Counted from the stretch's first letter, positions 4,141-58,896 are shown. The stretch: DNA of 64,000 bases from Candidatus Spyradenecus sp. (GCA_045613865.1 JAZLBT010000015.1:42913-106912), one strand, 5' to 3'. Notes: a model not told the origin generated them from the letters alone. Numbers and translations: made by a program.

Positions 4141-4218
4141 TAAGTTAATTTGATATCTTAACATCTCCTCAATGCTTCAAAATCAAACCACATGAAATGG
4201 CAAATAAAACATGGCACG

Positions 4219-20574: not shown

Positions 20575-20578
20575 TAAA

Positions 20579-33182: not shown

Positions 33183-33183
33183 A

Positions 33184-34272: not shown

Positions 34273-34486
34273 AAACGGTCCTCTCATACTTAACTATATT
34301 ATATGTCAAAAAACAGTCAAAAGCAACTGTTAATCAATGTGTCAAAAAAAATATTTCAAAAATGCGCTTAAAGTGCCTTTTTTATGCATCTTCTTTTTTA
34401 AAAAGATTTCTTAAATAAAAAATTAACTCTTTTTTTTCAATTTTCGCGTACTTTCTCCATCTTATCCCCCCTACTCTTCTTAACAA

Positions 34487-37457: not shown

Positions 37458-39827
37458 TTAATGTTGTTCACCAAGGAATCCATGGAGTTTCTTTATACGT
37501 GTGGGATGGCGAAGCTTACGCAACGCCTTGGATTCTATTTGACGAATACGTTCGCGAGTAACGGAAAAAAGTTTTCCGACCTCTTCGAGCGTACGGGAGT
37601 AACCATCGGTCAAGCCGAAACGATAATCAAGGACCTGGCGCTCACGTTCACTTAAAGAATAGAGCACCTCACGGAGACGTTCCTTGAGCAAGGTAAATGC
37701 AGCAACGTCTTCAGGACGTTCTGCAGCCTTGTCCTCAATAAAGTCTCCAAAGTGAGCGTCATCACTGTCGCCCACAGGGCTTTGGAGGGAAATGGGCTGC
37801 TGGGCCATGCGATAAACAGTCTTCACACGATCCACAGGCAAGTTCATTTCATCGGCGGTTTCTTCCATTGTCGGTTCGCGGCCCAACTCCTGAAGGAGTT
37901 TTTTCTGGACACGCAAAAGTTTATTAATGGTTTCAATCATATGCACAGGAATACGAATCGTTCGAGCCTGATCCGCGATTGCACGCGTTGCAGCTTGACG
38001 AATCCACCATGTTGCATACGTAGAGAATTTATAACCACGCTGATACTCAAATTTCTCAACAGCTTTCATCAAGCCTGTGTTGCCCTCTTGAATCAAATCC
38101 AAGAAGCTCAACCCGCGGTTCATATACTTCTTTACAATTGAAATCACCAAACGGAGATTGGCTTCCACCATCTCCTTTCTTGCTTGCGCTCCTGCGCGGA
38201 GTGCACAGCGAAGCTCTTCAAAAGCGTTCATAAACATCTTTGCAGGCATACCGAATTGCTTCTCTGCAACCGACATACGGCCTTCTAATTCTGCAAGCTT
38301 TTGTGTACGCTTTTTACTGAAACCTTGACGTTTCAGTTTCTTATGCACCACCATCATTTCCTTATAAGGCTTATAATAGGTTTCTTCGGCGTGCATACAA
38401 ATTGTTTCAAGCATCTTTTGCTTGAACTGCAAAGATTCATACTTTGCGCGCATTTTCTTACAATACTCTTCTAAACGGCGGTTAATCCCAGACAACGTCT
38501 CGGTATCATTCTTTGCCGTCGCAGCGATTTCATTATAAATCGCTTCCATCTCAATGCGCATTTCTTTAAGACGTGCTTGCTCTGGACGCATTGTTTCTAC
38601 ATACGTGTCGCGACTTTCCGAATACTTATCCGTCACAACACGATCAAAGCGTTCCTTGCCGCAATCCAACCCATTTAAAACATAGGCATACAAATCTGGA
38701 GCAATAGGCAAACGATTAAAGACATTAACAATCGTTGCTTCACTCTTTTCAATACGCTTACAAATAGAAACTTCCTGTTCGCGTGTAAGCAACGAGACTT
38801 GACCCATTTGATGCAAATACATACGAATCGGGTCATCAATAAAATCAACACGACCAGACGCGAATTCCTCACGTTGCTCTGCCATTGCATCTTCAAGATC
38901 TTCCTCTGCAACAACACGAACAGACATCGTTGCAAGTAAGTTCAAGAAACGCTCAATCGAGGTGTCTTTAATGATATCAGCAGGAAGATATTCATTCACC
39001 TGCTTAAGCGATAATACACGACTCTGTGTTTCAGAAAGCTTCAACAAATCTTTCAAACGTTCACGACATTCTTCACGCTCTTCAAGCTCTTCAATATCTT
39101 GTAACGCTTGTTGCTTCTTTGCATCCTCTTCAGAATTCGTAAAGACAACGCGAACATCAGAACCTTGAGCTAATCCACCCCATTCACCTTCATGAGCATA
39201 CATATCCGATTCGTCGTCAGGACGAATCGTACGCTCTGCCGGACGAACAAGACCCGAGTGTTCATGTTCGTTATATTCAACACCACCTACATTCTCAGAA
39301 TCCTGTTCTGACACACCGGCCAAAAGCTTTTCATCAGACAACTCTTCTGCATCTGGTACATCATCTTCATCATTTGAAAATTCACCAGGAGCATCAATAA
39401 GGAAATCATCCTCTCCAAGTGTAATCGTCACAAAGCCTTCTTCATCAACAGGCAAATTCACCAAACGAGGATCAAGCTCCTCTTTCTCCTTGGTTGTCTT
39501 CTTGGAGGAGGTCGATTCTACACCTTTCTTATTTTTCACAGGCTTCTCAGCAACCTCTGCAGTTTTTTTCTTAGAACCCTTTGGCGCTGCCGCAACCTTT
39601 TCAACACCCTTTTTAGAAACCTCTTGCGACGGCTTTGCTTTCTCAACACCCTTCTTACTCACAGTTTTTGATGGCATTGATACCTTTTTTGCTTCGTCTA
39701 CCTTAGAAGACTTCTTCTCGCTCTTCTTCTGAGGCTCCTCTGCTTTCACCGAACGCTTTGCAGACCCAGCTGTTGCTTGTGTTTTTTTCTTCTGCACAGG
39801 GGTTTCTTTTTTCGTTGCCTTCGCCAT
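37458..39827 (-). CDS. rpoD: RNA polymerase primary sigma factor sigma-70 (RpoD) with an extended Lys-rich/acidic N-terminal region of about 370 aa
   Basis: Region 2 [36 protein letters not shown], region 3 and region 4 ([30 protein letters not shown]) are all canonical. The start is assigned to [10 protein letters not shown] (ATG at 39827) rather than the ORF-track start at 39971. The N-terminus carries KKxS/KKGVEK repeats followed by an acidic block. Confidence 0.9.
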
Positions 39828-40073
39828 GAAACATTCTCTCCTGATTTTAGGGCGCAATGCACCTTCGCATAATATTGCCCGCGTACCATTATAACAAAAA
39901 ATATCACACTCTTCTAAAAAAGTCAAGTATTTTAAAGAACTTTTATTTTTCCACCTCCTTTTCCTATGCAAAGCAAAAGCATCACATACGCTTAAACAAT
40001 TTCTTGACTTTGGGGATTCAAATCCTCTACAATAAGTGAAGTTCTAACAATTTAATCATTAAGGTCTACGATA

Positions 40074-40635: not shown

Positions 40636-40672
40636 AAAAGAACCCCCAGCAAATGCTGAGGGTCTTTTTGTT
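40636..40672. terminator. Bidirectional rho-independent terminator between the lipoprotein gene (+) and giant gene 2 (-)
   Basis: Stem ACCCUCAGC / GCUGGGGGU with one G-U pair, flanked by A-runs and T-runs. It lies 15 nt past the giant gene 2 stop. Confidence 0.7.
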
Positions 40673-40686: not shown

Positions 40687-43600
40687 TTACTTCGTCTTTA
40701 CTTCAAGAACAACCTTAAAGAACTTAGGAGCCGTTTCATTAAGCTTGACGGATGCGCCCTTAAGCACCTGACCATCTGCAAGAGAAACCTCAATAGCATT
40801 GATCAACGTCCATTCATCAGAAAGGGTTTCCTTTCCGTAGAAGTTATAGACAGCATTCGTCTTTGCAATGATGTCTGTAATGTCTTCTTCTGTGATGGTT
40901 TCTGTCGTACCCGTGGCCTCAGTCTTCGAAGCTTCAACACTCCACTGAAGTGCAACATTGTTACCATCAAAGACAACCGACTTAATGGCTACGCTATAAT
41001 CGGTGTAACCCTTAGCAGCGAGTTCAAGCCAATTTGCAGCAGGCATAATCGAACCAAAGTTCGACATCGTATTCTGATAGGCCTCAGCAGGAATACCGAC
41101 ATCAACAATTCCATCGTTATTCACAGAGAGAACGTTGAAGCCAAAGACCTGTGCACCAAGGGAGGTGAGACCCGCTTCCGTCCAAAGCACACCGGCCTTC
41201 GTGTATGCATTAGCACCACCAACAACCGTATTGCACCAATCAGCAAAGAGCGTGCTCGGACGACCAGACTGGATCCATTCCCATGCATCAGCAAGCTTGT
41301 CGCCATCAACATCCACATCCTGGATATAGAAGGTTGCATCAATGCTCGTGCCCGAACGCTTCGGCGTGACCAACATCGGATCATAGTAGAAGTTATCAGA
41401 GGATGTTGCACCCTTTGCAAGATAACCCCACGGTTCCCATGTATCGCGCTTACCATTCATGTTAAGGTCGAAGTAGGCCACCAAATAGACGGGCTCATCG
41501 CTTGCAAGACCGCGAAGTTCTGCACGGATAAGCGTCGAATGGAAGATTTCTTCATTACCATCAACATAAGTCTTATCCTTTTCCATAATAACCGTGTGGT
41601 TGAGGTTATCAAGTGCAGGATTCGTACCATCATAATTGAGGTAGTCAGACGTCGAGGCAACAGGCGTACCATTGAAGGAGGCCGAGTAGTGAGCTTCGAT
41701 ACGAACAAGACCCTGCGAGAAGTCGTCGTCAGTGTTAAGAACACCGTTGTAACGAATGTTCGCACGGACATAGTAAGAATTCAACGCATTGAATGTTGTA
41801 TCCTTTGCACCTGCAGTATACTTGCCATCAGATCCCTTATAGGTTTCAACCGTTCCAATACCATCGACCAAATCACGAGAGTCGGTCAACTGAACCTGGA
41901 AGTAACCAACGAGTTCTACAGGGGTACCCGTATAAGGATGTAACGTAAGGACATACTTATAGGAACCATTACCGAAGAGAGCGGTTGCATCGCTGTTCAA
42001 ATCGCCGATTGCATTTGGCATTTCGTAGCGATAGTAGAACTTCGAGCTCGACTCATTGCTACGAGCAATTGCAGAGACGCCACGGATTGCCGTCTTTTCA
42101 AAGACCGTCTGTTCCTTGGCAAGGGCAATACCTGCAGCATCCATTGTCTTCACAATCTTAACATCAAAGCTCGGCAATTGAGTTGTCGAAGCCCATTCAA
42201 AGGCAAGATCCGTATTGGTGATAATCTTACCACCATTCGGATTGGCCGATTCAGGATCGCGAAGATGCGTCTGTTCAACACTGAAGCGACCGAAGTTGTT
42301 GATCGCAGTTGCAATACCATAGGTACGTGCAACATATTCCGGATCCGCCAACTTCGCAACAGGTGCGTAACAGACGAGATACTTCATTGCAGTCACATTT
42401 GGAGACAATGCCACAGAGAGACCCGTCGGGTTTGCAGCAAAGATTTCATCTTCTGTGATATAAGGCTTTGCGGTATTATAATCCTGCTCATAAGCACGCG
42501 TGAGCGTTGCCGTTGCACCCGAATGAATCGTGTTCGAGATGGTTTCCCAATCGTAGAAGATAATCTTGAAGTTTTCGGTCATCTCTTCACCCACTTCCCC
42601 GAGGAAGTTCGACCACTTCAAATTATCTCCCGTAAGCGGGTTCTTAATCTTCGATTCAAGCGAAGCTTCTTGTTCAGCAGCCTGATTATTATCATCTTCG
42701 CCTTCAGCATCACCTGTGCCATTGTTTTCCATTGCCTCAGCAGCCTTCTTTTCTGCAATGAAGGTGTCAAGGATTGTCTTCATTTCGACGCGGACAGCAC
42801 CAGGAGGCGCATTCTTTGTCAATGCAACATGGAGTTCACGATTAATGGTGTCATAACCGATGTCAACATCATGCTGATCGGGTACACCGGCAGGTTCACC
42901 TTCGTTCCACATGTTATTACCATTGAGGTCAAGGAAGACGAAGAAGTTATTCTTGCCTTCACGGATATGACCACCTTCAAGCGGCTGCGAGAAGGTGTAA
43001 GTTGCAGGGAAGCTTTCCACAGGCGACATTTCATATGCGGCCTTAAGATAGATGTCCTTGAAGTAGGCAACGAACTTTCCTTCGTCATTGTAGAGCTCAT
43101 CAGTGATGTAATCCTTTTCACTAATCGTGTAAGAATATTCACCTGTGATGTAATTAATCGTACCAATTGCGCGTTCAGACCATACAGCCTTAAGAACAGG
43201 CTTTCCGTCTTCATCAAGCACGGGTTCTCCCGTGGTTTCATCAACAGAGACAACCTCTGTCTTGAAGAAGCCCTTCAATAAGCCATTACCGTCGTCACGA
43301 ATCGTCACACCTTCACCATCGGTGTAGCCATTCAACGTACCGTCTTCGCCAATTTCTTGATAGTAAGAAGTCTTGACTTCAACAGAACCAGCCTTGATAT
43401 TACCGGGTTCGAGATAACCCGTTGTCGTGCCATAATTCATGCGACCGATAATTTGCGTCAAACCTTCTGCATTATCACCTTCAGCTGCTTCACCGAAAGG
43501 AAGCACGAAGATTGCATCAGGAGCGGACATATTACCCTTCACCGTAAAGGCATGAACGACAACCTTAGCCGACATTGCAACATTTTCGCCTTCGTCATTA

Positions 43601-46600
43601 TTGCCAGAATTAAGGATAGAATCCAAATCTTCAAAGCAATCCACACGAATGCTCAAAGCAGGCGTCGGATAAGCAGCGACCTTACCATTGATGGTCTGTT
43701 CAACATCCACCAAGGGGTTCGTCGAGTGAACACCACGTGTAGAGACGCGAGCTTCTGCGAAGTTCGACCAACCATCATGATCTGGGTCAGCATACATATC
43801 GAAGGAATCAACAGAAGGATTCGAAGACTTGAATGTCGCTTCCCAATGATCTTCCATGAAGTCTGCATCGGAGTAGAGCAAGCCCATTACTGGCGCACCA
43901 CGACGATAATAGAGCGGCACATGGAAGTCAGGAATATCATTACCAGCCGTCGAGTAGAGACCCGGATTGGAGTTTGCAAGATATTCTGCATAGTTCGTCA
44001 AGAAGTCACCGTCATTATCATAGTACGGACCATTCTTGCCAATCGGATCTTCATAATCGAGACCATAATATGTTTCCCACCAGTCAGGCATCTTATCGCC
44101 ATCGGTGTCGCGCGTTGCACCCTTACGAACTTCGGTTTCCAAGATTTGACCACCAACAGAAAGCTGGATGTCATTCATCTTATCACCCGTGTCAACTCCA
44201 TCCTTATTATGGAGGAACCATTCCGGGGTACCTTCTGTACCTTCAGTCGGAGCTTCCTTCTGATCAGGCGAAGAGAAGGAGCCTTCGGGTTCCCAACAAA
44301 TAGCAGAGTACTTCGTGAAGGCATCGCCATAAACCATAAGGTCTGTATCACGAATCACGGTGAAAGGTTCTTGTACCGTCTGCTTATCCTGATCGTAGGT
44401 CGGGAAGATCTCATAACGATAAGCATAGGGGTTAGCATTCACCTTCAAAAATACCGTTGCGTCAACCGTGTCTCCAGCCTTGTTCTTACGCCAGAAGCAA
44501 GTATCCCACATACGATATTGACCGAGTTCCGGCAATGCCGACATCTTCGGATTAATCGGTTCAAGGACCGAGGTCTCCATCTTGTGAAGACGAGGATTAC
44601 CTTCCTTGTCAAGCACCTCAATATCGAAGATTGGCAAACGAGAAACCAAGTTAATTGCCTTCGGCACATATTCATAGAACTTCTTCGTTGTCGTTGTTGC
44701 GATAGGCTTACCCGTTGTAGGATTATAAACCTTATCACCAAACGCATCAACCATCGGAACACGAGCAGTACGTTCTTCGCCATACTTCGTAGACTTCAAG
44801 TAGTCAGGCGTGTTGATGTCATAATACGAGCAGAAGAGATCTGTTGCTTGAGGCTTTTCATCACCTACGTAAGAGCTACGACGATAGGTGAAGGAACCAG
44901 GAATAGTTTCATCACCAATCAACTTCTGACCAGGATAGACTTCATAGACGTTATCTGCGTCTTCTTCCGTTGAAGAAGGAAGATTGTTGAAGGTGTAAAC
45001 CGCAACAGGATAGGTTGTAAGCGTATTCTCATAAATACCTTCACCGTCCTCATGCAAGTATTCTTCAACATCACCATTATTCAAACGATCAATCATCGAG
45101 GTCAAACGATAGGTGAGAAGTTCGTCCTTCGTCAATGTACGCTTGCTATCCTGAGCAATTTCAGTCTCAGTGCGGGCGCCATTCCAAATGCGAACTTCAT
45201 CCATGTAGCCCTTATAGCACTTGGTGAAGACTTCGCCAAAGGTATTGATACCAACAACGTTAGCCTCTTCTTCCTTAGACAAATAGTCAGAGGTATCAGC
45301 AATCCAGTTGTTCGTAGGTGTTGCACCCAAGATAAACGGTGCTTGATAGACATTGTAATATCTCCAATCACCATCATAAGAGTTAACAACCACACCAGTA
45401 GCCGGCAAGAGCGAGCTCAAAACGCTATTCGTCTCTTTACCATTGACATAAATTCGCAACGAGTTGCCATCATACGTTGCAGCAACGTGCGTCCATTCCG
45501 CATTTGGATCAATAGTGACAGAACCATTATCCTGCTTAACTTCCTTACCAATTGGCGTCTTCGAAACGGCGCGAGCCGACATTGCAGGCACGCTTGTTCC
45601 GCCATCAACCGAGCCACCAGTTGCAGTGAAGCAGGCATAAGGATAAAGCTTGTCACCCTTCACTTCCAAACCAAGAATGAAGTTGTGACGCAAGTGTTGC
45701 GTAGAGAGGCTATTCGTCGAGAACGACCACGGACGATCCACGAGAACAACATCAGTTTCATTCTGAACATCATCGGGGAGAATCCAGCATTCCACCGTAA
45801 AGCGACGAAGTGCCGTCGGACCAAAGTCAATCAAGGCCGGCGTTTGCATCGCGCCTTCGCCACCAAAGTAAGCGGCAAAGTTACGGGTCGGCGAGAAGGG
45901 ATCTTGAGGATCACCATTGTAATATGCATAAGGCGTAGAAACTTCTGTGCCATCTGCAATACCATCGCCATCGGTATCAAAACCTTCGTTCACTTCAAAC
46001 GGATAGAAGGGCATATCCTCAACGGCTTGACGAGAAGCGTCAGGATACTTCACAATAAATCCAGGATAGGACGTAAAGTATTCCTTCACATTGAGACCAT
46101 TTTCATCGGTCAATCCAGCAAGATTGTTACCATAGAAACGGAGCGTGAAAGAGTTCATATTGCTTGGATCTGTCATCCACAACGGCGACGGGTCTGTGCC
46201 ATGGTGAACTGCAGCATCTTCCCCGTTCGGAGCTTCATCAGAGTTCACAAGACCATCACCATCCGGATCTGCAAACGGCACACCCGTAAACCAAGGATAC
46301 GAGTAATAATCAAAGCCCGTTGCCTGCGTTGCAAAGTCACCAATGATGGCATTCTTCATCACAGGATTATAGGTAGCAGAGATATCCGTCTTCTTATAGT
46401 TACTAGCCAAATAAGCAGCTTGCAACATATCAATATGACGACCCGTAGCATTGTCCTTTACCTCTTCGCGGTAATCACCCAAAAGCGGGTTAAGGCCGTG
46501 GACAATTTCCCAATAGTCATCCATGCCATCCAAATCCGAATCCGAGGAAATCGGGCTTGTCGCAAAGAGCGGAACCTTGGAACGTTTAGCATCATTATTC

Positions 46601-49600
46601 GTTGTCGAGATTGTCGGGAAGGTGAGGAATTCTTCCTTGATCTGAAGCATATCACCCAAGCGGTTAGCAGAATTCTCTAAATAACCCGGCTTGATATAAC
46701 CAAGAGGACCAAAGTAAAGATTTCCATCTTCACGCCAAAGGCCACCATTGTAACCACGATAAGCCATCCGGACTTGAGCCTGCAAGAGCGGACACGTCGT
46801 CTCTGCAATGGTTGTTGCATAGTTGCCTGCACCACCATTACCAACACGTGCAACCGTCGGTGCATCAGGTTCTGTACCCGTCTGCTCCTTCACCCATGCA
46901 CGAATGTTATCAACCGAGCGATACGTATCTTCAGCACGCTTGAGTGCGTCCTTGTACTTCGCAACAATCTGATCACGACGTGCAGCCCAAATCTTTTGGC
47001 CTTCTTCAAAGGTCTTGATAAAGGCATAACCATTCACCTTTTGATCAATTGCCTTAAGGCTTGTGATCATGTCATTGTCATCGCTAAAGAATTCATCGAC
47101 CTTATGAATTGCCGTTACAGCCATCCAATAATCCTCATCCGAAGGATCAATAAAGGCCAAACGGTCAATTGCAGCCAAATACGTTGCAGTTTCCTTAACC
47201 TTCGTTGCATACTCCATCATGACACTATCATGAGAGACGCCAGGAATTGTTGTAATATCCACAGGATTACGTTCTGCAGAGCCCTGCGTCAAGAGACCCT
47301 TGCGAGCATCAATTTGCGACTCCGTGGGAAGCGCAATCGTACGAGCAAAGAGATAATTCACCAAACGCAATGCAGCATCTTCTTCACCATCTGCAGATGC
47401 ACGTGCAACCTTAATCGGATTGACTTCTGTATCCATCACATAATCCAAAGAGATCATCATGTCTGGATTCATCAAATCTTCATAAACGTTATAAGTGTCA
47501 GGGAAGGACTTCCAAATTACACCATACGTCCGCTTACCATCCATATCGATTTCAGAGACCCACTGTGCAACACCCTTCGCATTATCAAGCGACTTCGTGT
47601 AAAGACGAGAGACACTCGGAGAAAGGTCATAGCGGAAGTGACGGAAGGCACTTGTCATGTATTCCTGATAGTTCGTAAGACCATCATGATCAACGTCAAT
47701 ATCAACATCACCTTCATAGGTCGGGTCGATATTTTCAGGAATAGCAACCACTTCTGTCTCTGCTTCAGGGTCTTCACCCTCTACATTTTCTTCGTCTTCA
47801 GTAGTATCTTCTGCAACCTGCGGTGCGGTACCCCAGTAGAATTCATAACCATCCGACATACCATCACAGTCGGTATCCATTGAGCAGGGGTTCAAACCGC
47901 GACCTTCCCAGATCGATTTACGTGTACCATCTGCCGTGTAGATAAAGGTTGCCGAACCTTCCTGACCATCTTCAATACCATCAAAGTCGGTATCACTATT
48001 ATTCGGATCGGTCGGATAAAGTTTGTTCGTCCAACCAGGATTCGACAATCCACCGAGATCAGGATAGGAGTAAACCGATGCCTGACAAATAAACTCATCC
48101 TTTGTTGTAAGACCGTCTTCGTCAGTATCTTGTTCTCGTGCAGTTGCTGCAGGACCCGTAGGATCAAGATCCACATAGAGCGACCAACCATCTGGGATGC
48201 CATCGCCATTCGTATCCATGCTAACAGGAGACAACTGATTTACGAGCGGAAGAAGACGTGCGGTATTGTATTCTTCCATATTCGTGAAGGCGGTTGTATT
48301 TTCCGAGGTGTATTGGAAACGTGCATCACCAATCATGCCGCCCGATGCGGAAACAGCCCATGCTGTATACGGCGAGAAGCCAACCGTCGTGTAGACGTCA
48401 TGGTGCTTCAAGATGACCGCTTCGTTCGTTTCCATCTGATAGGACTTATCCGTCACAATGTTGGTGAGATTAATCTTTTCAGTCTCATCATCCAAATCAT
48501 CCCATGCAAAGGTTGTCTTGGAGAAACGTTCCAACGTTACAACTTCACCCTCTTCCAACGGATTTGCTGTGCCGTTCGCGGGCAAGGTGAAACGAATTTC
48601 CTTCGTTGCAGCATCATAGTAAGCACAGCACTTCACGAGCTGAATCGGCATACCATCTGCATCATACGTATTCACATAATAACGTGCATCTGCGGGAGCT
48701 GCCGTACCATTGAATTCCACTTCATAGAGATCGTGCACCACGCCAAACTTCTTCACTTCCAAACGTGCATAGAAGTCATTATCAGGGTTTTCATTTGCAT
48801 CGTCAAGGAAGGGATTCACGTAAGGAATACCATTATCATCGGCACCCCAGCCAGCTTCCCAACCATCGGGCATCCAGTCATTATCCGTATCGCAGTCGAG
48901 CGGATTGGTACCCAATGCAAGTTCTTCAATCGTGTTGTAACCGTCATTATCAGGGTCACCAGCAATACCACCATAGATATCGTTAGCTGTGATAACATCC
49001 CAGTAATTACCCATTGCAGACTTGTGGTTCGGGCGTGCATTTGCAGCAGGCGAACCAACTTCTGCATCAGGATTATAATCATTACGCAAACGACGACCCA
49101 TCACAAAACGGTTCGGCATGCCAAAGTGATTACCAACACCACCACGACGCTTGCCATTCATATTGATCTTAGCAACACTGGTTGTATCCATCGACTCAAG
49201 GTCACGAATATCGATTGCCGGCCAAATTGAAGTATTGATTTGCGTATAAGTTACGTCATCAGAGGTATCTTCAACCGTTTCCTTCTCATCCGTCCACTGG
49301 AAGGCGGAAGCAAAACGCATACGCGATGCATAGTACCAGAAGTAGTACTTCACACCATTAACGATATCACCACCATTGGTTTCACCGCCGAAACGATCCA
49401 ACCAACACGTCTGAAGCGGATCCCACGCATTTGTAAAGTACTCATCAAGGACAATACCCGCGGGCACCAACCAGTCATGGAAGGCAAACATTTCTGTTGT
49501 TGCATATGTCTTCGTGTCAACCTTCACCGTTGCATCTGCACCATTTTCGTCTACATATTCTTGCGTGTAAACAGGAGCGAGATACATCTTCTGCTTATAA

Positions 49601-52600
49601 GCCTTGATGTCAGCCGTCGTCTTGGTGCAATAGAGCAAACCATTGTCACCAATTTCGAAGACAAAGTCTGTCGAAGCAGGTTCCATGTCCGTAACAAGCT
49701 GAAGGATAACATCCTTTACAGTGATGCCCGTAGCCTTAATGAGTGCATCCATCTGCTCTGCGTAATCCTCTGCGGTCTTATCAAGCGCTTCAATATCTGC
49801 CATCGAGAGGGCGGCGAGCTTGCCTTCGCCAACCTTAATCGGCGTGGCGGTCGAATGCATCTCAACCTGATCATTGATACCAATGTAATTAGGTTGTGCA
49901 AGTTCGTAGCAAAGGAAACGTTCACCTTGAGGAATCGTTTCGTAAATTACAGCATCCTTTACCGTCGGAGCATCTGGATCAAAGAGCGGAATCCATGCAC
50001 GCTTTGCATTGCCCGCTTCATCTACCATCGGAATATGAACCATTGTATCAACAGTCTTTTCCTCTGCCGATGGAGTCGCTGAGTCAAACGATGTCGTCAA
50101 GAAAACCTGACACATATTGGGAATTTTTATTTCCTCAATTGCAACAGTCGTAACCAAATTGCCTTCGCTATCTGTCATCTGTGCATAGGTATCAACCGGC
50201 TTTTTCTTCGTTGTGACAGGGTCTGTGGTGCTGTCAGTGACATACTCAATCTCAACTGTTCCCGTCTTCACCCAAACAGGATAAGACTCGCCCGCCTTCA
50301 CGGTCTTCGATGTTTCTGTTTCAGCAACACCATCCAAGTCAGGATCAAGCTGACGCATCATTGCTTCCGTCTTCACCGCGGAGATAAGCATCATCTTACC
50401 GCCTAATTCACGAATGTCGAGATGTTTAAGCGTACCTGCCTGCTTGGCATCATCCTTACCCGGCATTTCATCAGACGAGGTGAAAGGATAGACAAGATTT
50501 GCCCCCGTTGCTTCATCGTAAACAGGAATGAAGTGTCGAACCTTCCGCGTTGCCGTATAGAGACCCGTCTCTTCCGACACAGAGGTCTTATCAACAAAGG
50601 TCTCTTCTGCATTGTAAGCCCACGTAACCTTTTGGTTACCATGATAGTCTAGCGCATAATTGTAAAGGTCAACAATTTGTTCGTAGTCTACACTATCCTT
50701 ATCCGTACAAACGAGCACCATGTGACCTTCTGGGCGACCATGAAGATGATTCCATCCTAAGGGGAAACCACGAACCTTCGATTCGTCATTACCATCGCCA
50801 AGCACCCAACGCCAACCAGCCTCATGCCATTCCTGAGGAATATTCCACCATTGGGGTTCATCTGGATTATTGATGTGTTTGCTTACGAAATCTGTTTTTT
50901 CTTCATTGAGATAGGGAATTTGATGACGTTCTGTACGAGCGACACGAATACCCGTGTCTTCCCAATCGGCAATCGTATCTTCAACCTTACGATAAACGAT
51001 TTCAGAGCCCATGTAAAGCTTGTGCTTTTCAAGCTGAGAAGGAACGAAAGAACCATCATTACGAAGCGTACCAGCATTAATAAAGGTTTCTTTATCATGT
51101 CCGTTAGGAGCAGTCTTTTCTGTATAAGCCCCACCAAAACTATCCAACTTTGCCTGCGTCACAGCAGGACGAAGCGCAACAACCCATGCAGGAGCAGAGA
51201 GCCAATTACCATGACCATCACCAGCATTCAATGCATCATCACGACCACGAATACGCTGCTTATAGGTGAACTGTTCACCTGTAACCGAGCAAGGTCCTTG
51301 AGGATTATTACGCGTCCAATGAATGGGCAACGAAAGGTTAACCGTATCATTGGCACCAGCATTATCAAGCGTATTGTTTACAAAGTTAGCGGCATAAACA
51401 GTATCACCGCCATTCCAACCTGCGAAAGGAAGACGATCACCTTCAGCAACCGTTGCTGCAACATTGGTTTCGACAAGTTCACGACCATTGGTGAAGTTTG
51501 CAATCAACCAACCATCGGGAACGCCGTCCATATTGTAGTCGCCGAGATCAAAGAGACCATTACGATCGCTCGTCTCCATCGAGTAAGCGCGCAAAGCATC
51601 GCCTTCGTCATATTCAAGCGTAAAGATTGCAGAGAGCACAATATCTGCCCATGTTTCCGATTCCTTCGGATCAACTTCTGCATCACCAGGCGCAAACATA
51701 CGATTAATTTGCAAGGTAGGCGAATAGATCGACTGCAAGGGGTCGGTCGACTCAAGTGGAAGCAAGCCAATGTAATCTTCCGATGCTGCCCACTTGTAGA
51801 AGAAGGAGTCCTTCGTCGGATTTACACCGATAAAGGAGTCAAACTTCTTACCCGCATGGGTCTTCTTGTTTGTACCTGCAGAAAAAGGAATTGCAACAAC
51901 CGCTGCGGTTGTACCCGTACCACGACCTAAGGTTGCGGATGTTGCCGTGCGGGTAAAGGTCCACTTCGACTGGCCACCTTCAGCAACTGTACCATTCTTC
52001 GCAACGTCTTCAGCCCACGCAATGAAACCAGAAGCCGACATTGCACCATAGGTGTTATAAACATTAAACGTGAACTTCTGTGCAGAAGAGATATCAACAA
52101 GGCCCGAAGGACGATTTTCGGAAGCAACATAGGCACCCGACGAGTCATAGGCCGTCATGCTCCAGTTGTGTTGACCAGCTGCATCGTAGGAATAAGTAAA
52201 GGCAACTTGCGATTCATAGCCTTCGCGTTCAATGCGGCAAGCTCCACCCTTTGCGAAGGAACCGACGGCGTCGGCTTTTTCACCATAATACTTCTTTTCG
52301 AGTTCGCGAACCTTATCATTCCACTTGGCTTCGCCCATTTGCTGAATCATATCTTCATCATTTGCAATCAAACGATATTCACGAGCATCAGCGACAGCTT
52401 CATCGAAATTCATTTCAACAACGATATAATCGGTCTTTGCATCTGCGATGGAGAAGGCAAAGGGAATCGTTGCACCAACAGAAGAAGTTTGTGCTGCGGT
52501 TGCACCCGTCACAAACGGAGCACGGTTAGCAATTGTCGGCGCTGCAATCGGAGAGCAAATATCTGCATTGCCAGTGATACGACCCGTTGCGGTACCAGCG

Positions 52601-54675
52601 CGAACAGCAAAGAGCGGCATCTTGATGGCAACATCGGTAGCATCATAGGTACCAAGTTTATTATCCTTCTTATAAACGGGAGCATTGAGAAGCTTGCTTG
52701 CAAAATCGTTCAATGCAGCAACATAGAAAGACTTTGCCGTTTCACCAGGGGCAAAGGTCATCACAAGGCGCAAGGGATCCGTTGCAAGGTTACTTACACC
52801 CGAACCCGTCGACTGTACCTGAAGCATCGTCTTCAAGAGATCAACTACAGGCGTATAAATCGTCTCGATTATAGCATCATTCTCATCGCGGATCTCTTCC
52901 TTATAATAGTAGTCTTCCGTAATTTCCGTTGTGCCATTAGAGAAGACGGGGTGCACAACGAAGTAGCGTTTCGCCGTCGAAACGGACTCAACACTTGCAG
53001 TATACGTTGCAATCGAGAGCGCGGTCGTTGCGTCGCCCGCCATCGCAGGACGATATTCCTGCAAATAGTCACCTGTTTCGGCAACGCTAATGGTGATATT
53101 CTCAACCTTCGTCGAAGACATCACAACGATGTACATCGGCGTATCTTGATCGTTGCTAAGACCGGGGATATGAACACGATAGAGCGCCTGGCCCGACTTC
53201 GCATTCGTCTTTGCCGTGAACTTAATCGATTCCAAGTCACCCGTTGCATTATATAAAGGAACAACATACTTGTCAGGAGAGACATTCGCATTCGATTGAG
53301 AAATCTGCTCAACGATTGCATAGAGCGTACCTGCGCCACTCAAACGATCAATATTATTCTTATCGATTTCCACCGTTGCGGTAGAACCTGCAGGCACAGA
53401 AACGAAGACAACATTGCCATCGCCTTCTTTAAATGTTGCAGGCGTTGTGACATCGTCCGAGCCACCCTGAATAAAATCAGCCAAAAGGTCTGCATCTGCA
53501 AACGTTGCGGTATCCTTATTGGGAATGTCAAGCGTTGTTGCTGTATAGCCCGAAGTTGCCGTATTGTTCACAACAGGCGAATCCAACAAGTCAAATTCTG
53601 CAGCAGCATAAACGTGCGAGTAAGTGGCATTCGTTGAGGGCATACCATAGCAGATACGCACAGGAGCCGATGTAGTAACACCCTGCGGAATGCTTACATA
53701 AAACGTCTGTGCAACAAAAGGTGCAGTGGTGCTATGACCATCCACAGAGGCGGCATACTTGCTATAACCATCTGCATCCTTTGCAACAAGTGCGGTATTA
53801 TCTGCATCAGCACCTGCAATATACGATGTTGCGTCGCGGTAAACGCTAATCTTTGCAGGGATCAAATTGCCATTTGCATCCTCCACCCAGAGCTTGCAAC
53901 CTGCAGCAACCGAAGCAGACGTGAACGCAGCAGGAATTTGATCAACATAATCAGCTGGCATTGCCACAGTAACAGGCACAAGACCCTTGTAAAGCTTGCC
54001 GGCATCGCCCACGGTAATTGCGAAGCCGTTCACTGCACAAGAAGCACCCGCTGTCACAGAAGAGCCGTCAAACGCATCCCTGTCAAGCGAGAGCTGTGTC
54101 ATTGTTGTGCCCGTAGAGGCACGTTCCTGTACCGACAACTTAATATTTTCAACCGTGCCGGACAAACGTAACGAACCATCCGCATTGCGTGCAAGGTCAA
54201 TATCGTCAACCATATCACCCGGACGCACCACATAAGCGAAGCGAAGCGTACCAGCAGCAGTCGAATCCACATAGTAAGCAACAGCCGAAGACGTCTGAGC
54301 GGGCACATCAACGTCTGCCTTGTAGCCCTGAGGATTACCATCAACCGTTGCAACCGAAGAGAGACCCTTCAATGGAATGTTCAACAACAATGCGGGGCGT
54401 GTACCAGCCTTTGCCGTATCGGCATGTTCATAGCTCGCCTTACCTAACGTTGTCGTCACTGTTGTGCTCGTTACTGTCGACTTCAACTTCACATCGAAGT
54501 AAACAATATCGCCAACAGCAAGGGTTGTCGCATCTGGACCACCACTATTACTCTCAGCGAACGAACGAGACACGCTCTCTACAGTAAGATCCGCAGAACT
54601 TACTGCATATGCATTTGTGCTCCAAAATGCGGTTACCGCTACCGCAGAAGCAATCAACATGTGTTTCATTTTCAT
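40687..54675 (-). CDS. Giant secreted protein 2 (about 4,662 aa from the ATG at 54675). It has a scattered array of Ca-binding DxDxDG (thrombospondin-type-3-like) motifs and a LamG/ConA-like domain.
   Basis: Signal peptide MKMKHMLIASAVAVTAFWSTNAYA. At least 14 D.D.DG..(D/N)..E motifs (for example DTDNDWMPDGWE, DTDCDGMSDGYE, DTDGDGIADGTE, DVDVDGDKLADAWE) lie between residues ~1910 and 4470. A LamG-like jelly roll ending in YMDEVRIWNGARTETEIAQ spans residues ~2960-3190, about nt 45120..45810. The ORF track starts at a GTG at 54687; the ATG at 54675 has GGAG 11 nt upstream. Confidence 0.85.
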   Translation of the reverse strand: MKMKHMLIASAVAVTAFWSTNAYAVSSADLTVESVSRSFAESNSGGPDATTLAVGDIVYFDVKLKSTVTSTTVTTTLGKASYEHADTAKAGTRPALLLNIPLKGLSSVATVDGNPQGYKADVDVPAQTSSAVAYYVDSTAAGTLRFAYVVRPGDMVDDIDLARNADGSLRLSGTVENIKLSVQERASTGTTMTQLSLDRDAFDGSSVTAGASCAVNGFAITVGDAGKLYKGLVPVTVAMPADYVDQIPAAFTSASVAAGCKLWVEDANGNLIPAKISVYRDATSYIAGADADNTALVAKDADGYSKYAASVDGHSTTAPFVAQTFYVSIPQGVTTSAPVRICYGMPSTNATYSHVYAAAEFDLLDSPVVNNTATSGYTATTLDIPNKDTATFADADLLADFIQGGSDDVTTPATFKEGDGNVVFVSVPAGSTATVEIDKNNIDRLSGAGTLYAIVEQISQSNANVSPDKYVVPLYNATGDLESIKFTAKTNAKSGQALYRVHIPGLSNDQDTPMYIVVMSSTKVENITISVAETGDYLQEYRPAMAGDATTALSIATYTASVESVSTAKRYFVVHPVFSNGTTEITEDYYYKEEIRDENDAIIETIYTPVVDLLKTMLQVQSTGSGVSNLATDPLRLVMTFAPGETAKSFYVAALNDFASKLLNAPVYKKDNKLGTYDATDVAIKMPLFAVRAGTATGRITGNADICSPIAAPTIANRAPFVTGATAAQTSSVGATIPFAFSIADAKTDYIVVEMNFDEAVADAREYRLIANDEDMIQQMGEAKWNDKVRELEKKYYGEKADAVGSFAKGGACRIEREGYESQVAFTYSYDAAGQHNWSMTAYDSSGAYVASENRPSGLVDISSAQKFTFNVYNTYGAMSASGFIAWAEDVAKNGTVAEGGQSKWTFTRTATSATLGRGTGTTAAVVAIPFSAGTNKKTHAGKKFDSFIGVNPTKDSFFYKWAASEDYIGLLPLESTDPLQSIYSPTLQINRMFAPGDAEVDPKESETWADIVLSAIFTLEYDEGDALRAYSMETSDRNGLFDLGDYNMDGVPDGWLIANFTNGRELVETNVAATVAEGDRLPFAGWNGGDTVYAANFVNNTLDNAGANDTVNLSLPIHWTRNNPQGPCSVTGEQFTYKQRIRGRDDALNAGDGHGNWLSAPAWVVALRPAVTQAKLDSFGGAYTEKTAPNGHDKETFINAGTLRNDGSFVPSQLEKHKLYMGSEIVYRKVEDTIADWEDTGIRVARTERHQIPYLNEEKTDFVSKHINNPDEPQWWNIPQEWHEAGWRWVLGDGNDESKVRGFPLGWNHLHGRPEGHMVLVCTDKDSVDYEQIVDLYNYALDYHGNQKVTWAYNAEETFVDKTSVSEETGLYTATRKVRHFIPVYDEATGANLVYPFTSSDEMPGKDDAKQAGTLKHLDIRELGGKMMLISAVKTEAMMRQLDPDLDGVAETETSKTVKAGESYPVWVKTGTVEIEYVTDSTTDPVTTKKKPVDTYAQMTDSEGNLVTTVAIEEIKIPNMCQVFLTTSFDSATPSAEEKTVDTMVHIPMVDEAGNAKRAWIPLFDPDAPTVKDAVIYETIPQGERFLCYELAQPNYIGINDQVEMHSTATPIKVGEGKLAALSMADIEALDKTAEDYAEQMDALIKATGITVKDVILQLVTDMEPASTDFVFEIGDNGLLYCTKTTADIKAYKQKMYLAPVYTQEYVDENGADATVKVDTKTYATTEMFAFHDWLVPAGIVLDEYFTNAWDPLQTCWLDRFGGETNGGDIVNGVKYYFWYYASRMRFASAFQWTDEKETVEDTSDDVTYTQINTSIWPAIDIRDLESMDTTSVAKINMNGKRRGGVGNHFGMPNRFVMGRRLRNDYNPDAEVGSPAANARPNHKSAMGNYWDVITANDIYGGIAGDPDNDGYNTIEELALGTNPLDCDTDNDWMPDGWEAGWGADDNGIPYVNPFLDDANENPDNDFYARLEVKKFGVVHDLYEVEFNGTAAPADARYYVNTYDADGMPIQLVKCCAYYDAATKEIRFTLPANGTANPLEEGEVVTLERFSKTTFAWDDLDDETEKINLTNIVTDKSYQMETNEAVILKHHDVYTTVGFSPYTAWAVSASGGMIGDARFQYTSENTTAFTNMEEYNTARLLPLVNQLSPVSMDTNGDGIPDGWSLYVDLDPTGPAATAREQDTDEDGLTTKDEFICQASVYSYPDLGGLSNPGWTNKLYPTDPNNSDTDFDGIEDGQEGSATFIYTADGTRKSIWEGRGLNPCSMDTDCDGMSDGYEFYWGTAPQVAEDTTEDEENVEGEDPEAETEVVAIPENIDPTYEGDVDIDVDHDGLTNYQEYMTSAFRHFRYDLSPSVSRLYTKSLDNAKGVAQWVSEIDMDGKRTYGVIWKSFPDTYNVYEDLMNPDMMISLDYVMDTEVNPIKVARASADGEEDAALRLVNYLFARTIALPTESQIDARKGLLTQGSAERNPVDITTIPGVSHDSVMMEYATKVKETATYLAAIDRLAFIDPSDEDYWMAVTAIHKVDEFFSDDNDMITSLKAIDQKVNGYAFIKTFEEGQKIWAARRDQIVAKYKDALKRAEDTYRSVDNIRAWVKEQTGTEPDAPTVARVGNGGAGNYATTIAETTCPLLQAQVRMAYRGYNGGLWREDGNLYFGPLGYIKPGYLENSANRLGDMLQIKEEFLTFPTISTTNNDAKRSKVPLFATSPISSDSDLDGMDDYWEIVHGLNPLLGDYREEVKDNATGRHIDMLQAAYLASNYKKTDISATYNPVMKNAIIGDFATQATGFDYYSYPWFTGVPFADPDGDGLVNSDEAPNGEDAAVHHGTDPSPLWMTDPSNMNSFTLRFYGNNLAGLTDENGLNVKEYFTSYPGFIVKYPDASRQAVEDMPFYPFEVNEGFDTDGDGIADGTEVSTPYAYYNGDPQDPFSPTRNFAAYFGGEGAMQTPALIDFGPTALRRFTVECWILPDDVQNETDVVLVDRPWSFSTNSLSTQHLRHNFILGLEVKGDKLYPYACFTATGGSVDGGTSVPAMSARAVSKTPIGKEVKQDNGSVTIDPNAEWTHVAATYDGNSLRIYVNGKETNSVLSSLLPATGVVVNSYDGDWRYYNVYQAPFILGATPTNNWIADTSDYLSKEEEANVVGINTFGEVFTKCYKGYMDEVRIWNGARTETEIAQDSKRTLTKDELLTYRLTSMIDRLNNGDVEEYLHEDGEGIYENTLTTYPVAVYTFNNLPSSTEEDADNVYEVYPGQKLIGDETIPGSFTYRRSSYVGDEKPQATDLFCSYYDINTPDYLKSTKYGEERTARVPMVDAFGDKVYNPTTGKPIATTTTKKFYEYVPKAINLVSRLPIFDIEVLDKEGNPRLHKMETSVLEPINPKMSALPELGQYRMWDTCFWRKNKAGDTVDATVFLKVNANPYAYRYEIFPTYDQDKQTVQEPFTVIRDTDLMVYGDAFTKYSAICWEPEGSFSSPDQKEAPTEGTEGTPEWFLHNKDGVDTGDKMNDIQLSVGGQILETEVRKGATRDTDGDKMPDWWETYYGLDYEDPIGKNGPYYDNDGDFLTNYAEYLANSNPGLYSTAGNDIPDFHVPLYYRRGAPVMGLLYSDADFMEDHWEATFKSSNPSVDSFDMYADPDHDGWSNFAEARVSTRGVHSTNPLVDVEQTINGKVAAYPTPALSIRVDCFEDLDSILNSGNNDEGENVAMSAKVVVHAFTVKGNMSAPDAIFVLPFGEAAEGDNAEGLTQIIGRMNYGTTTGYLEPGNIKAGSVEVKTSYYQEIGEDGTLNGYTDGEGVTIRDDGNGLLKGFFKTEVVSVDETTGEPVLDEDGKPVLKAVWSERAIGTINYITGEYSYTISEKDYITDELYNDEGKFVAYFKDIYLKAAYEMSPVESFPATYTFSQPLEGGHIREGKNNFFVFLDLNGNNMWNEGEPAGVPDQHDVDIGYDTINRELHVALTKNAPPGAVRVEMKTILDTFIAEKKAAEAMENNGTGDAEGEDDNNQAAEQEASLESKIKNPLTGDNLKWSNFLGEVGEEMTENFKIIFYDWETISNTIHSGATATLTRAYEQDYNTAKPYITEDEIFAANPTGLSVALSPNVTAMKYLVCYAPVAKLADPEYVARTYGIATAINNFGRFSVEQTHLRDPESANPNGGKIITNTDLAFEWASTTQLPSFDVKIVKTMDAAGIALAKEQTVFEKTAIRGVSAIARSNESSSKFYYRYEMPNAIGDLNSDATALFGNGSYKYVLTLHPYTGTPVELVGYFQVQLTDSRDLVDGIGTVETYKGSDGKYTAGAKDTTFNALNSYYVRANIRYNGVLNTDDDFSQGLVRIEAHYSASFNGTPVASTSDYLNYDGTNPALDNLNHTVIMEKDKTYVDGNEEIFHSTLIRAELRGLASDEPVYLVAYFDLNMNGKRDTWEPWGYLAKGATSSDNFYYDPMLVTPKRSGTSIDATFYIQDVDVDGDKLADAWEWIQSGRPSTLFADWCNTVVGGANAYTKAGVLWTEAGLTSLGAQVFGFNVLSVNNDGIVDVGIPAEAYQNTMSNFGSIMPAANWLELAAKGYTDYSVAIKSVVFDGNNVALQWSVEASKTEATGTTETITEEDITDIIAKTNAVYNFYGKETLSDEWTLINAIEVSLADGQVLKGASVKLNETAPKFFKVVLEVKTK

Positions 54676-54714
54676 ACCGTGTACCACTCCATTTCAAGGG
54701 GGTTTTTTATAAAA

Positions 54715-55371
54715 TTACTGAGCAACCGCCTGTGTTGCTGTTTGAGAATCCTGTTTTTGAGCATCTGCACGTGTCGGGAGCCCCGCTTCCTTCACCTGCG
54801 TCTCAACCGTCGAAAGCATTTGATCATAATCATTTTGAGCCGCATGCGTCTGCTGTTTAATACGCTGATAAACGCGACCCGTTGCCTTGCGGCTTGCCTC
54901 TTCTGCTTCAGCTACGGCCTTTAACAACGACTGATAATGTGCGTGCTGAGCAAGCTTTTCATTAATCAACGTCTGGCTCACCTTCATGCCACGAGCCTCG
55001 ACCGCAGCCGTCCAATTCTTAACCAATAATGCACGATAATCATCGGCAGCTTTTTTTGCAACAGCATAGGCATCGGCCGCCTGTGCTCGCTCATTTCCCA
55101 ACTGTTTCAAGTCAGCTTTGTAAGCCTCATCCTTAACACGCTCATCGCCCGTTGTCAAAGCGGGACGACCATTTGGATACTTCGCGTCTAAATCTGCGTA
55201 ATATTTTTCACGCGCGACAAGCCCATCTGCGCTCGTCGTCGTGGAGTCTTTTTGTGTCTCTGCCTCTGGAGGCGAATTATCGCCGCACCCCTGTAAAATC
55301 AGGCTTCCAAAGACAAATAGTAAACACGCGATGCCTCTCGACAGCACGTGTAGCTGACGCCTATAAAACAT
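54715..55371 (-). CDS. Lipoprotein with an Ala/Lys/Glu/Gln-rich, coiled-coil-like C-terminal half; first gene of the giant-2 operon
   Basis: Signal peptide + lipobox LILQGCGD. The downstream half is predicted helical (KADLKQLGNERAQAADAYAVAKKAADDYRALL...). There is a 39-nt gap to the giant gene start on the same strand. Confidence 0.6.
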   Translation of the reverse strand: MFYRRQLHVLSRGIACLLFVFGSLILQGCGDNSPPEAETQKDSTTTSADGLVAREKYYADLDAKYPNGRPALTTGDERVKDEAYKADLKQLGNERAQAADAYAVAKKAADDYRALLVKNWTAAVEARGMKVSQTLINEKLAQHAHYQSLLKAVAEAEEASRKATGRVYQRIKQQTHAAQNDYDQMLSTVETQVKEAGLPTRADAQKQDSQTATQAVAQ

Positions 55372-55750
55372 TTTTAGACCTCTTCTCTAATTCAATCATA
55401 CGGGAATAAACTATCACATCTACCCCAAATACGCAAGCATTCTTTTGAAGAAAGAGAAAAAATACACCCACCTTTTACTAACCTATAATAGAGAGCATTT
55501 TCCATCCCCTCCCACCCCCACTCTAACCACCTCTCAACACCCCTCAAAATTCCTCCTTTTTTCACTCGATTTTCGTTCTGGAAAATGATTTCCCTGCCCC
55601 CCATCCCATCATTCCCCAACAAAATTCCCAATCAAATTTCTCATTTAAAAGTGTCGCACACGTCTTCAATCTCCAATCGCCTACACCCCACGCAACGTTT
55701 CACCAACCTTTGTTATACCTGTTGATAAGCTGTGCATAACCCACGATTTT

Positions 55751-55838
55751 GAAACCGCACCTGTTTGAAGCTCAAACGTGCCGCAATTGAAGCTCAAACA
55801 GGTGCGGTTTAAGCTTCAAATAGCACCTGTTTCAAATT
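55751..55838. repeat. Four tandem 22-bp repeats of the CAAACAG family, with an embedded 17-bp perfect inverted repeat
   Basis: Units: GAAACCGCACCTGTTTGAAGCT / CAAACGTGCCGCAATTGAAGCT / CAAACAGGTGCGGTTTAAGCTT / CAAATAGCACCTGTTTCAAATT. AAACCGCACCTGTTTGA (55752-55768) is the exact reverse complement of TCAAACAGGTGCGGTTT (55794-55810). Confidence 0.8.
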
Positions 55839-56646: not shown

Positions 56647-56669
56647 CTTCATTGTTCGTTTTCGAAGGA

Positions 56670-58775: not shown

Positions 58776-58896
58776 ATCTGACTCCTAATAGTACGGGATG
58801 CAAATAAAAAAGATAGTGCAATATATCACAAACCTTGATGAAAAATCAAGCATTTATTTTATTCTTTTAAAAAAAGTCCTTGATGTATCAAAAGAA

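Follow-up and report, generated by a model that had tools for sequence, protein, structure and literature searches.

Giant proteins of the Omnitrophota are rich in TSP3 (thrombospondin type 3; PF18884), dockerin and LamG_3 (PF13385) repeats (West-Roberts et al., 2023, 10.1101/2023.11.21.568195; 10.64898/2026.06.07.730766). They are scaffolds of tandem repeats, with TSP3 present in up to 41 copies or LamG in up to 36; transmembrane anchors, C39 peptidase or SecA-like domains are found in many of them, and they have been proposed to serve in attachment (10.1101/2023.11.21.568195; 10.64898/2026.06.07.730766). A lipoprotein partner is not part of this description; the term occurs 0 times in both papers (10.1101/2023.11.21.568195; 10.64898/2026.06.07.730766). 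Here we describe a two-gene locus of Candidatus Spyradenecus sp., a Kiritimatiellae-type bacterium of the Planctomycetes-Verrucomicrobia-Chlamydiae (PVC) superphylum, in which the gene of a very large protein, giant protein 2, directly follows that of a small lipoprotein. The locus lies in a stretch of 64,000 nucleotides (GCA_045613865.1 JAZLBT010000015.1:42913-106912), called the window below, and all coordinates are counted from its first letter. The giants of the Omnitrophota are the nearest described relatives of giant 2 in kind: both are very long secreted or envelope proteins with DxDxDG-type loops and concanavalin-like lectin domains, and the Omnitrophota are a PVC-related phylum. In contrast to them, giant 2 has one LamG domain, 16 unique and unrepeated loops and a Sec signal, and its lipoprotein partner is conserved.

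The giant 2 gene lies on the minus strand, at 40687..54675 when read from an ATG (4662 amino acids, aa) and at 40687..54687 when read from the GTG given in the list of open reading frames (ORFs; 4666 codons). The true start is probably the ATG at 54675, four codons inside the listed GTG at 54687, since it yields a classical Sec signal peptide and a length equal to that of the database protein P0035 (4662 aa), which is 97% identical over the searched C-terminal 1200 residues of giant 2. Residue numbers in this text follow the 4666-codon ORF. In the translation, the predicted Sec-type signal peptide MKMKHMLIASAVAVTAFWSTNAYA occupies 54604..54675 (minus strand), with cleavage before VSS. The Cys content of the protein is 0.6%. 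NCBIfam gave no matches on the whole of giant 2, sorting-signal models included, and no enzyme, phage or defence family matched anywhere in it (Pfam, PHROGs, PADLOC); a phage or defence origin was dropped on the negative PHROGs and PADLOC results. PDB sequence searches were likewise negative. Several antisense ORFs of 360–540 aa run along the plus strand within the giant 2 gene (42178..53256), and another of 709 aa, with no Pfam match, lies opposite the gene of elongation factor G (EF-G) at 56652..58781 (plus strand); all of these are most likely shadow ORFs of codon bias and not genes.

The original prediction for this locus had read giant 2 as a protein with at least 14 DxDxDG motifs of thrombospondin type, scattered over residues ~1910–4470. 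All eight motif strings that it quoted were found where it had placed them in the protein. Whether the number holds depends on how the motif is defined. Strict DxDxDG occurs 11 times, short of 14 and about 50-fold above chance (0.22 expected, maximum 3 in 2000 shuffles), and the wider 12-residue loop D-x-[DN]-x-[DN]-x6-[DE] occurs 15 times, about 12-fold above chance (1.2 ± 1.1 expected). The residue range applies to 10 of the 11 strict motifs; the eleventh, at residue 1448, falls outside it, is unconserved and sits in a lineage-specific insertion. A sixteenth conserved loop, at residue 2158, has S as its final residue.

To follow these loops we aligned giant 2 with 15 orthologs, of which 14 are full-length and one was concatenated from its split parts. 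Sixteen loops stand in fixed alignment columns, at residues 1911, 1933, 2158, 2187, 2232, 2271, 2331, 2716, 2807, 2904, 3527, 3557, 3634, 3920, 4407 and 4459, with loop-to-loop distances in giant 2 of 22–623 residues. The common pattern is D at position 1, D/N at 3, D/N at 5, mostly G at 6, D/N at 9 and E at 12. Across the 15 orthologs, loop positions 1, 3, 5 and 12 are 95% identical, whereas identity over the full length is 29.5%, and 941 of 960 loop cells retain an acidic or amide ligand. A conserved Cys is absent from all 16 loops. The first seven loops (1911 to 2331) form a cluster at 47662..48957 (minus strand), a region covered by 70–140 of the collected relatives, and the next three (2716, 2807, 2904) form a second group at 45943..46542 (minus strand), directly ahead of the LamG domain. 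Because the loops are far above chance and 95% identical at the ligand columns, they are non-random and under strong purifying selection at the exact metal-ligand positions of EF-hand, dockerin and TSP3 loops.

The thrombospondin-type repeat context of the prediction did not hold up. Internal repeats were found neither by self-BLAST of the protein nor by Tandem Repeats Finder on the DNA. Pfam TSP_3 (PF02412) did not match whole giant 2 (E ≤ 0.1), nor any of six fragments (E ≤ 10) or of ten overlapping ones (E ≤ 0.5). The bacterial profile TSP3_bac (PF18884) was borderline: it passed its cut-off of 25 bits on one 200-aa fragment only, which holds loops 1911 and 1933 (26.5 bits), reached 17–22.5 bits on other fragments, including 22.5 and 18.5 bits over the second loop group, both under the cut-off, and was not reported for the whole protein. 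Precomputed PF18884 matches in the orthologs are graded 'weak' or 'faint'. On fragments of giant 2, EF-hand profiles stayed below significance (best EF-hand_1 E = 0.088, EF-hand_7 E = 1.6) and Dockerin_1 had no match at any threshold used. Given the lack of internal repeats, the wide spacing, the missing cysteines and the absent TSP_3 match, we regard the loops as individually placed sites and not as a thrombospondin-type wire, an outcome that the prediction itself had named as speaking against it. The loops are single or paired and occupy fixed orthologous positions of a non-repetitive chassis, the C-terminal part of the protein described below.

Comparison with the known loop families shows where the likeness ends. 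With the TSP3 repeats of thrombospondin and COMP the loops share the DxDxDG core, the alternating acidic ligands and an aromatic residue or Glu that often follows a few residues on. In those proteins the repeats form a contiguous, Cys-rich 'calcium wire', whereas the loops of giant 2 are spaced, have no Cys and carry Glu at position 12, as EF-hands do. OmpA-like bacterial TSP3 repeats have an intra-repeat disulfide. With the loops of EF-hands and dockerin F-hands, those of giant 2 share the length of 12 residues, the ligand pattern and, in a structure model, the exit into a helix, and by pattern and model the EF-hand/dockerin type of loop is found at 16 sites of giant 2. They differ in that no profile matches, no entering helix is predicted and the loops lie between beta-rich domains, not in four-helix EF-hand pairs. 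The model was made with AlphaFold2 for residues 3510–3990 (42718..44160, minus strand; pLDDT 77.7, pTM 0.68), the most widely conserved module of the protein, which consists of three loop-plus-helix units (3527, 3557, 3634) followed by beta-sandwich domains that close with loop 3920. All three loops enter a short helix that starts at loop position 9, with the beta-sandwich domains after them; this modelled geometry resembles that of EF-hand and dockerin F-hand units. The calcium link of such loops is established knowledge of the EF-hand, dockerin and TSP3 families, and by analogy the loops of giant 2 would bind Ca2+.

A LamG domain in the middle of giant 2 had also been predicted, and this call was borne out by Pfam. 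Against a gathering cut-off of 27.6 bits, Laminin_G_3 (PF13385) scored 56.3 bits (E = 5e-15) with the full-length sequence as query and 64.6 bits (E = 1.5e-17) when a fragment was used. The LamG, or concanavalin A-like, jelly roll spans residues ~2942–3185 (45133..45864, minus strand), and the string on which the call had been based, YMDEVRIWNGARTETEIAQ, is its C-terminal motif at residues 3161–3179. The orthologs of giant 2 carry the domain as well. Towards the N-terminus, residues 29–1228 (51004..54603, minus strand) contain no Pfam domains and are shared with close orthologs only, at 28–30% identity; a word-index search with residues 1–1200 came back empty, a false negative, as direct BLAST against the orthologs aligns residues 5–1228 at 28–29% identity. 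Residues 1229–1721 (49525..51003, minus strand) are a lineage-specific insertion of ~490 residues that P0035 alone shares in the coverage map and whose column identity is 7.8%, compared with 29.5% overall. At the other end of the protein, a domain block of residues 4395–4666 (40690..41505, minus strand) comprises loops 4407 and 4459 and then an alpha+beta terminal domain ending in FFKVVLEVKTK. In the alignment this block stands at the extreme C-terminus of every relative, being present in 29 proteins and always within ~27 residues of the C-terminus. Its AlphaFold2 model has a pLDDT of 67. The sole C-terminal Pfam signal is SnoaL_2 at 26.3 bits, under its cut-off of 27, and Foldseek with the low-confidence C-terminal model (~130 residues) placed SnoaL/NTF2 entries enriched at the top, all of them non-significant (E > 0.1, TM < 0.25).

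We then looked at how far the protein is shared beyond its orthologs. Residues 2401–3600 have relatives of 36–37% identity in Kiritimatiellae metagenome-assembled genomes and weaker relatives labelled Verrucomicrobia and Lentisphaerota. With the C-terminal 1200 residues, an exhaustive profile-free search gave 1162 proteins at E ≤ 1e-3, of which 454 reach E ≤ 1e-10; among the matches are ~15 full-length orthologs of 4121–5475 aa and more than 100 other giants of 3000–7700 aa. In the coverage map of the collected relatives, residues 1–1228 are shared by ~18 proteins, residues 1900–2400, 2700–3200 and 3500–4000 are common to 70–150 proteins, and within the C-terminal part coverage is lowest, at ~18, around residues 2401–2600. 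On this map, giant 2 divides into a variable N-terminal part of ~1,900 residues, which is lineage-specific, and a C-terminal chassis of ~2,700 residues, which recurs at least partly in many other PVC giants. In four related loci the giant is split into two ORFs (L081, 1..9756; L082, 2595..15189; L083, 2686..12739; L091, 1947..11890). The split positions differ, and the two ORFs have an 8-nucleotide (nt) overlap, a 105-nt gap or a 6-nt gap. The splits in L081–L083 lie near the equivalents of residues 2620–2770; that in L091 lies elsewhere, and L090 and L092, which have the same lipoprotein as L091, encode the giant as a single 4118-aa ORF. These splits seem to be secondary or else assembly artefacts, and may reflect frameshift errors or recent pseudogenisation.

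The predicted partner lipoprotein (218 aa; 54715..55371, minus strand) begins with MFYRRQLHVLSRGIACLLFVFGSLILQGC followed by GD and has the lipobox LILQGC. Measured against the pattern [LVI][ASTVI][GAS]C, this lipobox has fitting residues at -3 (L), -1 (G) and +1 (C) but not at -2, where Q falls outside the classical choice. All seven aligned orthologs of the lipoprotein keep QGCG, as does the copy at locus L093; the degenerate copy at locus L094 has IGCD. Behind the signal peptide follow a Pro/Ser/Thr-rich linker, the motif YAxLDAKYPxGRP, a helical region of ~120 residues with the motifs HYQxLL and YDxxxxxxxxxxxxAG-P-R, and a polar tail. The predicted long helical tail is supported by composition, since residues 74–196 contain no proline, consist to 61% of helix-forming residues and are rich in Ala, Lys, Gln and Glu; the coiled coil that had been proposed along with it was not established. 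QGCG, YAxLDAxFPxGxP, HYQxL and AG-P-R are invariant or nearly so among orthologs that are only 29–38% identical overall. No Pfam (seven orthologs, E ≤ 1), NCBIfam or PDB family could be assigned, the PDB profile search giving nothing below E = 0.099, and none of the seven orthologs matched profiles of Skp/OmpH, pilotins or other chaperone families. In the database the family makes up 15 clusters, none of them informatively named; the one with a name is a hypothetical protein of a Kiritimatiellae bacterium.

Conservation of this partner beside the orthologs of giant 2 had been singled out as a decisive check, and the lipoprotein was present upstream in every readable 5′ flank, with one degenerate exception. 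The pairing was seen from either search direction. Starting from the giant orthologs, a homologous lipoprotein lies 38–62 nt upstream of the giant in L082, L083, L084, L085, L086 and L087; the one in L084 had been shortened by the gene caller. Starting from the lipoprotein profile, the most divergent member was found 56 nt upstream of a 4118-aa giant with TSP3_bac and LamG, on three contigs (L090–L092). A metagenome scan with the profile added two loci only: L093, again a lipoprotein–giant pair, and L094, where the lipoprotein-like gene (10001..10447) with the IGCD lipobox diverges at its C-terminus into a Lys/Arg-rich tail. Two distant giants of the chassis family also follow small charged helical lipoproteins, which show little or no sequence similarity to the lipoprotein of the window: a 7683-aa giant begins 17 nt after a gene with the lipobox LPGC (L088, 5525..5983), and a 3747-aa giant 44 nt after one with LSGC (L089, 1204..1710). 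Because of these two cases the pairing may extend beyond the orthologous group. Within the literature searched we found no description of the giant 2 family or of the lipoprotein–giant pairing.

The arrangement of the two genes suggests an operon. As predicted, the giant 2 gene starts 39 nt past the lipoprotein gene, counted to the ATG at 54675, and this spacer (54676..54714, minus strand) has GGAG before the ATG; the relatives have a similarly short spacing of 38–62 nt. Between the two genes no convincing terminator was seen: a 6-pair hairpin that overlaps the stop codon of the lipoprotein gene is weak, and terminator-like sites are no more frequent than in shuffles. Beyond giant 2, 23 nt after its stop codon, an intrinsic-terminator-like hairpin of 10 pairs (6 G-C) with a T-run lies at 40641..40664 (minus strand). 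We read the lipoprotein and giant 2 as one putative bicistronic operon that ends at this hairpin, because nothing convincing divides the genes while a strong terminator-like hairpin follows the giant.

Upstream of the lipoprotein gene, an alignment of eight loci revealed a conserved element at 55372..55440 (minus strand), with its core at 55387..55418. The ~65 nt before the lipoprotein start are ~80% identical among the eight loci, which range from 39 to 70% in G+C and whose lipoproteins are only 29–38% identical. The element comprises a -35-like cTTGCg, an extended -10-like TGTGnTAsTTT, the leader GTATGmTTGArTTAG and the Shine-Dalgarno sequence AAGAGG. Its pattern, GCTTGC-N17-TGTGnTACTTTA-N5-GTATGCTTGAgTTAG-AAGAGG-N6-ATG, is found at a single place in the window, where chance would give 0 matches. 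It reads as a candidate sigma-70-type promoter (extended -10) followed by a short leader and a Shine-Dalgarno sequence. The ATG within the element shares the lipoprotein's reading frame in most relatives but not in the window, where it opens a 12-codon upstream ORF, MIELEKRSKNVL, whose stop lies inside the first codons of the lipoprotein gene, beside an A5 run; this inner ATG may be a start codon, part of a short upstream ORF or plain leader sequence. Further upstream, ~380–460 nt from the lipoprotein gene, imperfect inverted and direct copies of AAACCGCACCTGTTTGAAGCTCAA cluster at 55748..55836 (24-nt arms, 88% complementary) within a 1.3-kb non-coding, partly purine-rich region. Rfam found no known riboswitch or leader in this 1.3-kb region; its two hits were tRNAs, far off.

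Apart from the Omnitrophota proteins, two well-studied systems invite comparison. RTX (repeats-in-toxin) adhesins such as LapA, SiiE and MpIBP resemble giant 2 in being very large and in having lectin-like, ligand-binding domains and many calcium sites (predicted ones in giant 2), for which a role in stiffening an extended molecule is assumed. These surface-held proteins have tens of near-identical Ig-like repeats and C-terminal GGxGxD nonapeptide repeats, lack a Sec signal and have genes of ATP-binding cassette (ABC), membrane fusion protein (MFP) and TolC components as neighbours; none of this applies at giant 2. An adhesin of the RTX type, exported by type I secretion (T1SS), was dropped as a reading: a Sec signal is present, RTX/HemolysinCabind does not match and ABC, MFP and TolC neighbours are missing. 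Cargo of the type IX secretion system (T9SS) and PEP-CTERM proteins were dropped too, with no defining feature present; no known C-terminal sorting domain (T9SS C-terminal domain, PEP-CTERM, LPXTG) matched the giant 2 C-terminus in NCBIfam or Pfam. For the partner, the closest comparison is Braun's lipoprotein (Lpp), which is likewise small, with a mostly helical mature part rich in Ala, Lys, Gln and Glu, and tethering is plausible on this likeness. Unlike Lpp, the partner is three times longer, has conserved non-helical motifs (YAxLDAKFPxGRP, AG-P-R) and is coupled genetically to one giant client, and the two have no sequence similarity.

Housekeeping genes surround the locus (EF-G, RpoD, glycogen phosphorylase, MnmE, haem biosynthesis, TsaD), and for this reason we place the giant 2 cassette in the chromosomal core and not on an island. 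RpoD (37458..39971, minus strand; 837 aa) has an N-terminal extension of ~300 residues ahead of region 1.1, with no family match. In L085 (18169..22586) and L087 (16241..20610) a gene pair of ~277 and ~1190 aa stands right after the giant ortholog, the larger of which encodes F5/8 type C (discoidin) domains; the window lacks this pair, and there the terminator and then RpoD follow giant 2.

Family scans and translation identified a second cassette in the window at 21012..34287 (minus strand), made up of a pseudopilin-like gene and a second giant, giant 1. The pseudopilin-like gene (33184..34287, minus strand) has the prepilin motif GFTMIE, and its end runs 8 nt into the giant 1 gene. Giant 1 (21012..33191, minus strand) has 4059 aa and a Sec signal, and two adjacent tRNA genes lie just downstream of it (20501..20652, minus strand). 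The prediction was right that giant 1 lacks the motifs, as it has 0 strict and 0 relaxed loops. We could not accept as established its further claim, that the two giants share a C-terminal module: the similarity between the C-termini is very weak and covers ~60 residues (BLASTP E = 0.016 over 81 residues; hhalign E = 8.7e-4, 23% probability, 58 columns), and the chassis of giant 2 is not detectable in giant 1. The linkage of the two cassettes is conserved, since a pseudopilin-like gene recurs 3–5 kb downstream of the giant 2 ortholog in L085 (23459..24094) and L086 (25617..28423). In L086 a giant-1-like gene follows it; the L085 contig stops within the pseudopilin-like gene.

We favour, at about even odds (a probability of roughly 0.5), a Sec-exported, calcium-stiffened giant of the envelope or surface with a dedicated lipoprotein partner. 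Directly supported are the gene structure, the signal peptides, the lipobox, the loop conservation, LamG, the synteny and the family structure; from these we infer calcium binding, location, lipoprotein–giant contact, adhesion and anchoring. In the proposed sequence of events, the conserved promoter would drive the two-gene operon, the terminator would close it, and Sec would export both proteins. The lipoprotein would be lipid-anchored and would hold the giant at the membrane or serve in its assembly or export. The 16 loops would take up Ca2+ and lock the inter-domain segments, giving a stiff, extended envelope or cell-surface molecule whose variable N-terminal part, perhaps with LamG, may contact glycans or other ligands. 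Several points weigh against this model. Calcium binding, surface exposure and a lipoprotein–giant complex themselves rest on inference, and giant 2 bears no signature of an outer-membrane route (T1SS, T9SS, two-partner secretion, autotransporter). The Q at -2 of the lipobox is unusual for a substrate of the lipoprotein signal peptidase. No giant gene follows within 2 kb of the lipoprotein-like gene in L094, which may have decayed or may sit on a chimeric contig. The giant is not built of repeats, unlike the well-studied giant adhesins, and a 'stiff fibre' is an extrapolation. Finally, the LamG domain sits in the conserved chassis and not in the variable part, which argues against it as a determinant of specificity.

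The main rival departs from the favoured model solely in the role of the lipoprotein, which would be a dedicated periplasmic chaperone or export factor, i.e. a holdase or outer-membrane assembly helper without which a non-repetitive chain of 0.5 MDa would not cross the envelope or fold there, with the giant then released to the medium or matrix. A small helical protein co-transcribed right upstream of its client is what many chaperone–substrate pairs look like, and the partnership is conserved. That distant giants come with different-looking helical lipoproteins of similar size would be expected of a partner that co-evolves with its client, and the weak hairpin over the lipoprotein stop codon could yield surplus lipoprotein transcript. 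Against this stands the absence of similarity to Skp/OmpH, pilotins or any chaperone family, and we consider the chaperone role unlikely, though it deserves real weight. The loops themselves suggest another possibility: dockerin-like loop pairs could make the giant a cellulosome-type scaffold that recruits secreted proteins, such as the polysaccharide-degrading enzymes typical of Kiritimatiellota, with the lipoprotein fixing the scaffold to the cell. Three loop pairs stand 22–30 residues apart (1911/1933, 2158/2187, 3527/3557), near the spacing of dockerin halves, and the AlphaFold2 model has the loop and exit-helix geometry. Giants of the dockerin and TSP3 types also occur in the related Omnitrophota (10.1101/2023.11.21.568195; 10.64898/2026.06.07.730766). 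However, most loops are isolated and unpaired, Dockerin_1 matched at none of the thresholds, no cohesin-like genes were seen nearby, and scaffolds normally bear cohesins and not dockerins; a scaffold is in our view quite improbable.

We give similarly little credence to the idea that the giant is a periplasmic structural protein, an envelope spacer or skeleton tied down by the lipoprotein and not a surface adhesin. It would account for Sec signals without any outer-membrane export signature, for the housekeeping neighbours, the chromosomal cassette and the strongly conserved promoter, and for a conserved, non-repetitive chassis that looks more like a fixed structural part than a fast-evolving adhesin. 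Yet LamG and TSP3-type loops usually belong to extracellular proteins, the strong lineage-to-lineage variation of the N-terminal 1,900 residues fits environmental exposure, and the pseudopilin–giant linkage points to type II secretion or pilus-like export. This linkage also allows a wider, doubtful proposal, in which the lipoprotein–giant 2 pair, with a conserved promoter of its own, and the repeatedly linked pseudopilin–giant 1 pair would together form an undescribed PVC envelope or surface apparatus, with the chassis as a structural machine, the lipoprotein as tether or export partner, exchangeable N-terminal heads and maybe type II secretion or pilus-like export.

The Kiritimatiellota and related PVC bacteria abound in guts and sediments, where they degrade polysaccharides, and very little is known of their cell surface. 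The locus defines a large unannotated protein family, with 1,162 representatives by the C-terminal 1,200 residues alone; its hallmarks are a fixed set of calcium-type sites, a seemingly obligatory small lipoprotein partner and a conserved putative promoter. Giant 2 is not built of repeats, and therefore ~95% of its length is without a known domain. As judged from sequence, the lipoprotein and the giant appear to form an uncharacterised two-gene module across the PVC superphylum and not an ordinary repeat adhesin. If the partner is indeed a tether or export factor, it would explain how these diderm bacteria handle Sec substrates of half a megadalton.

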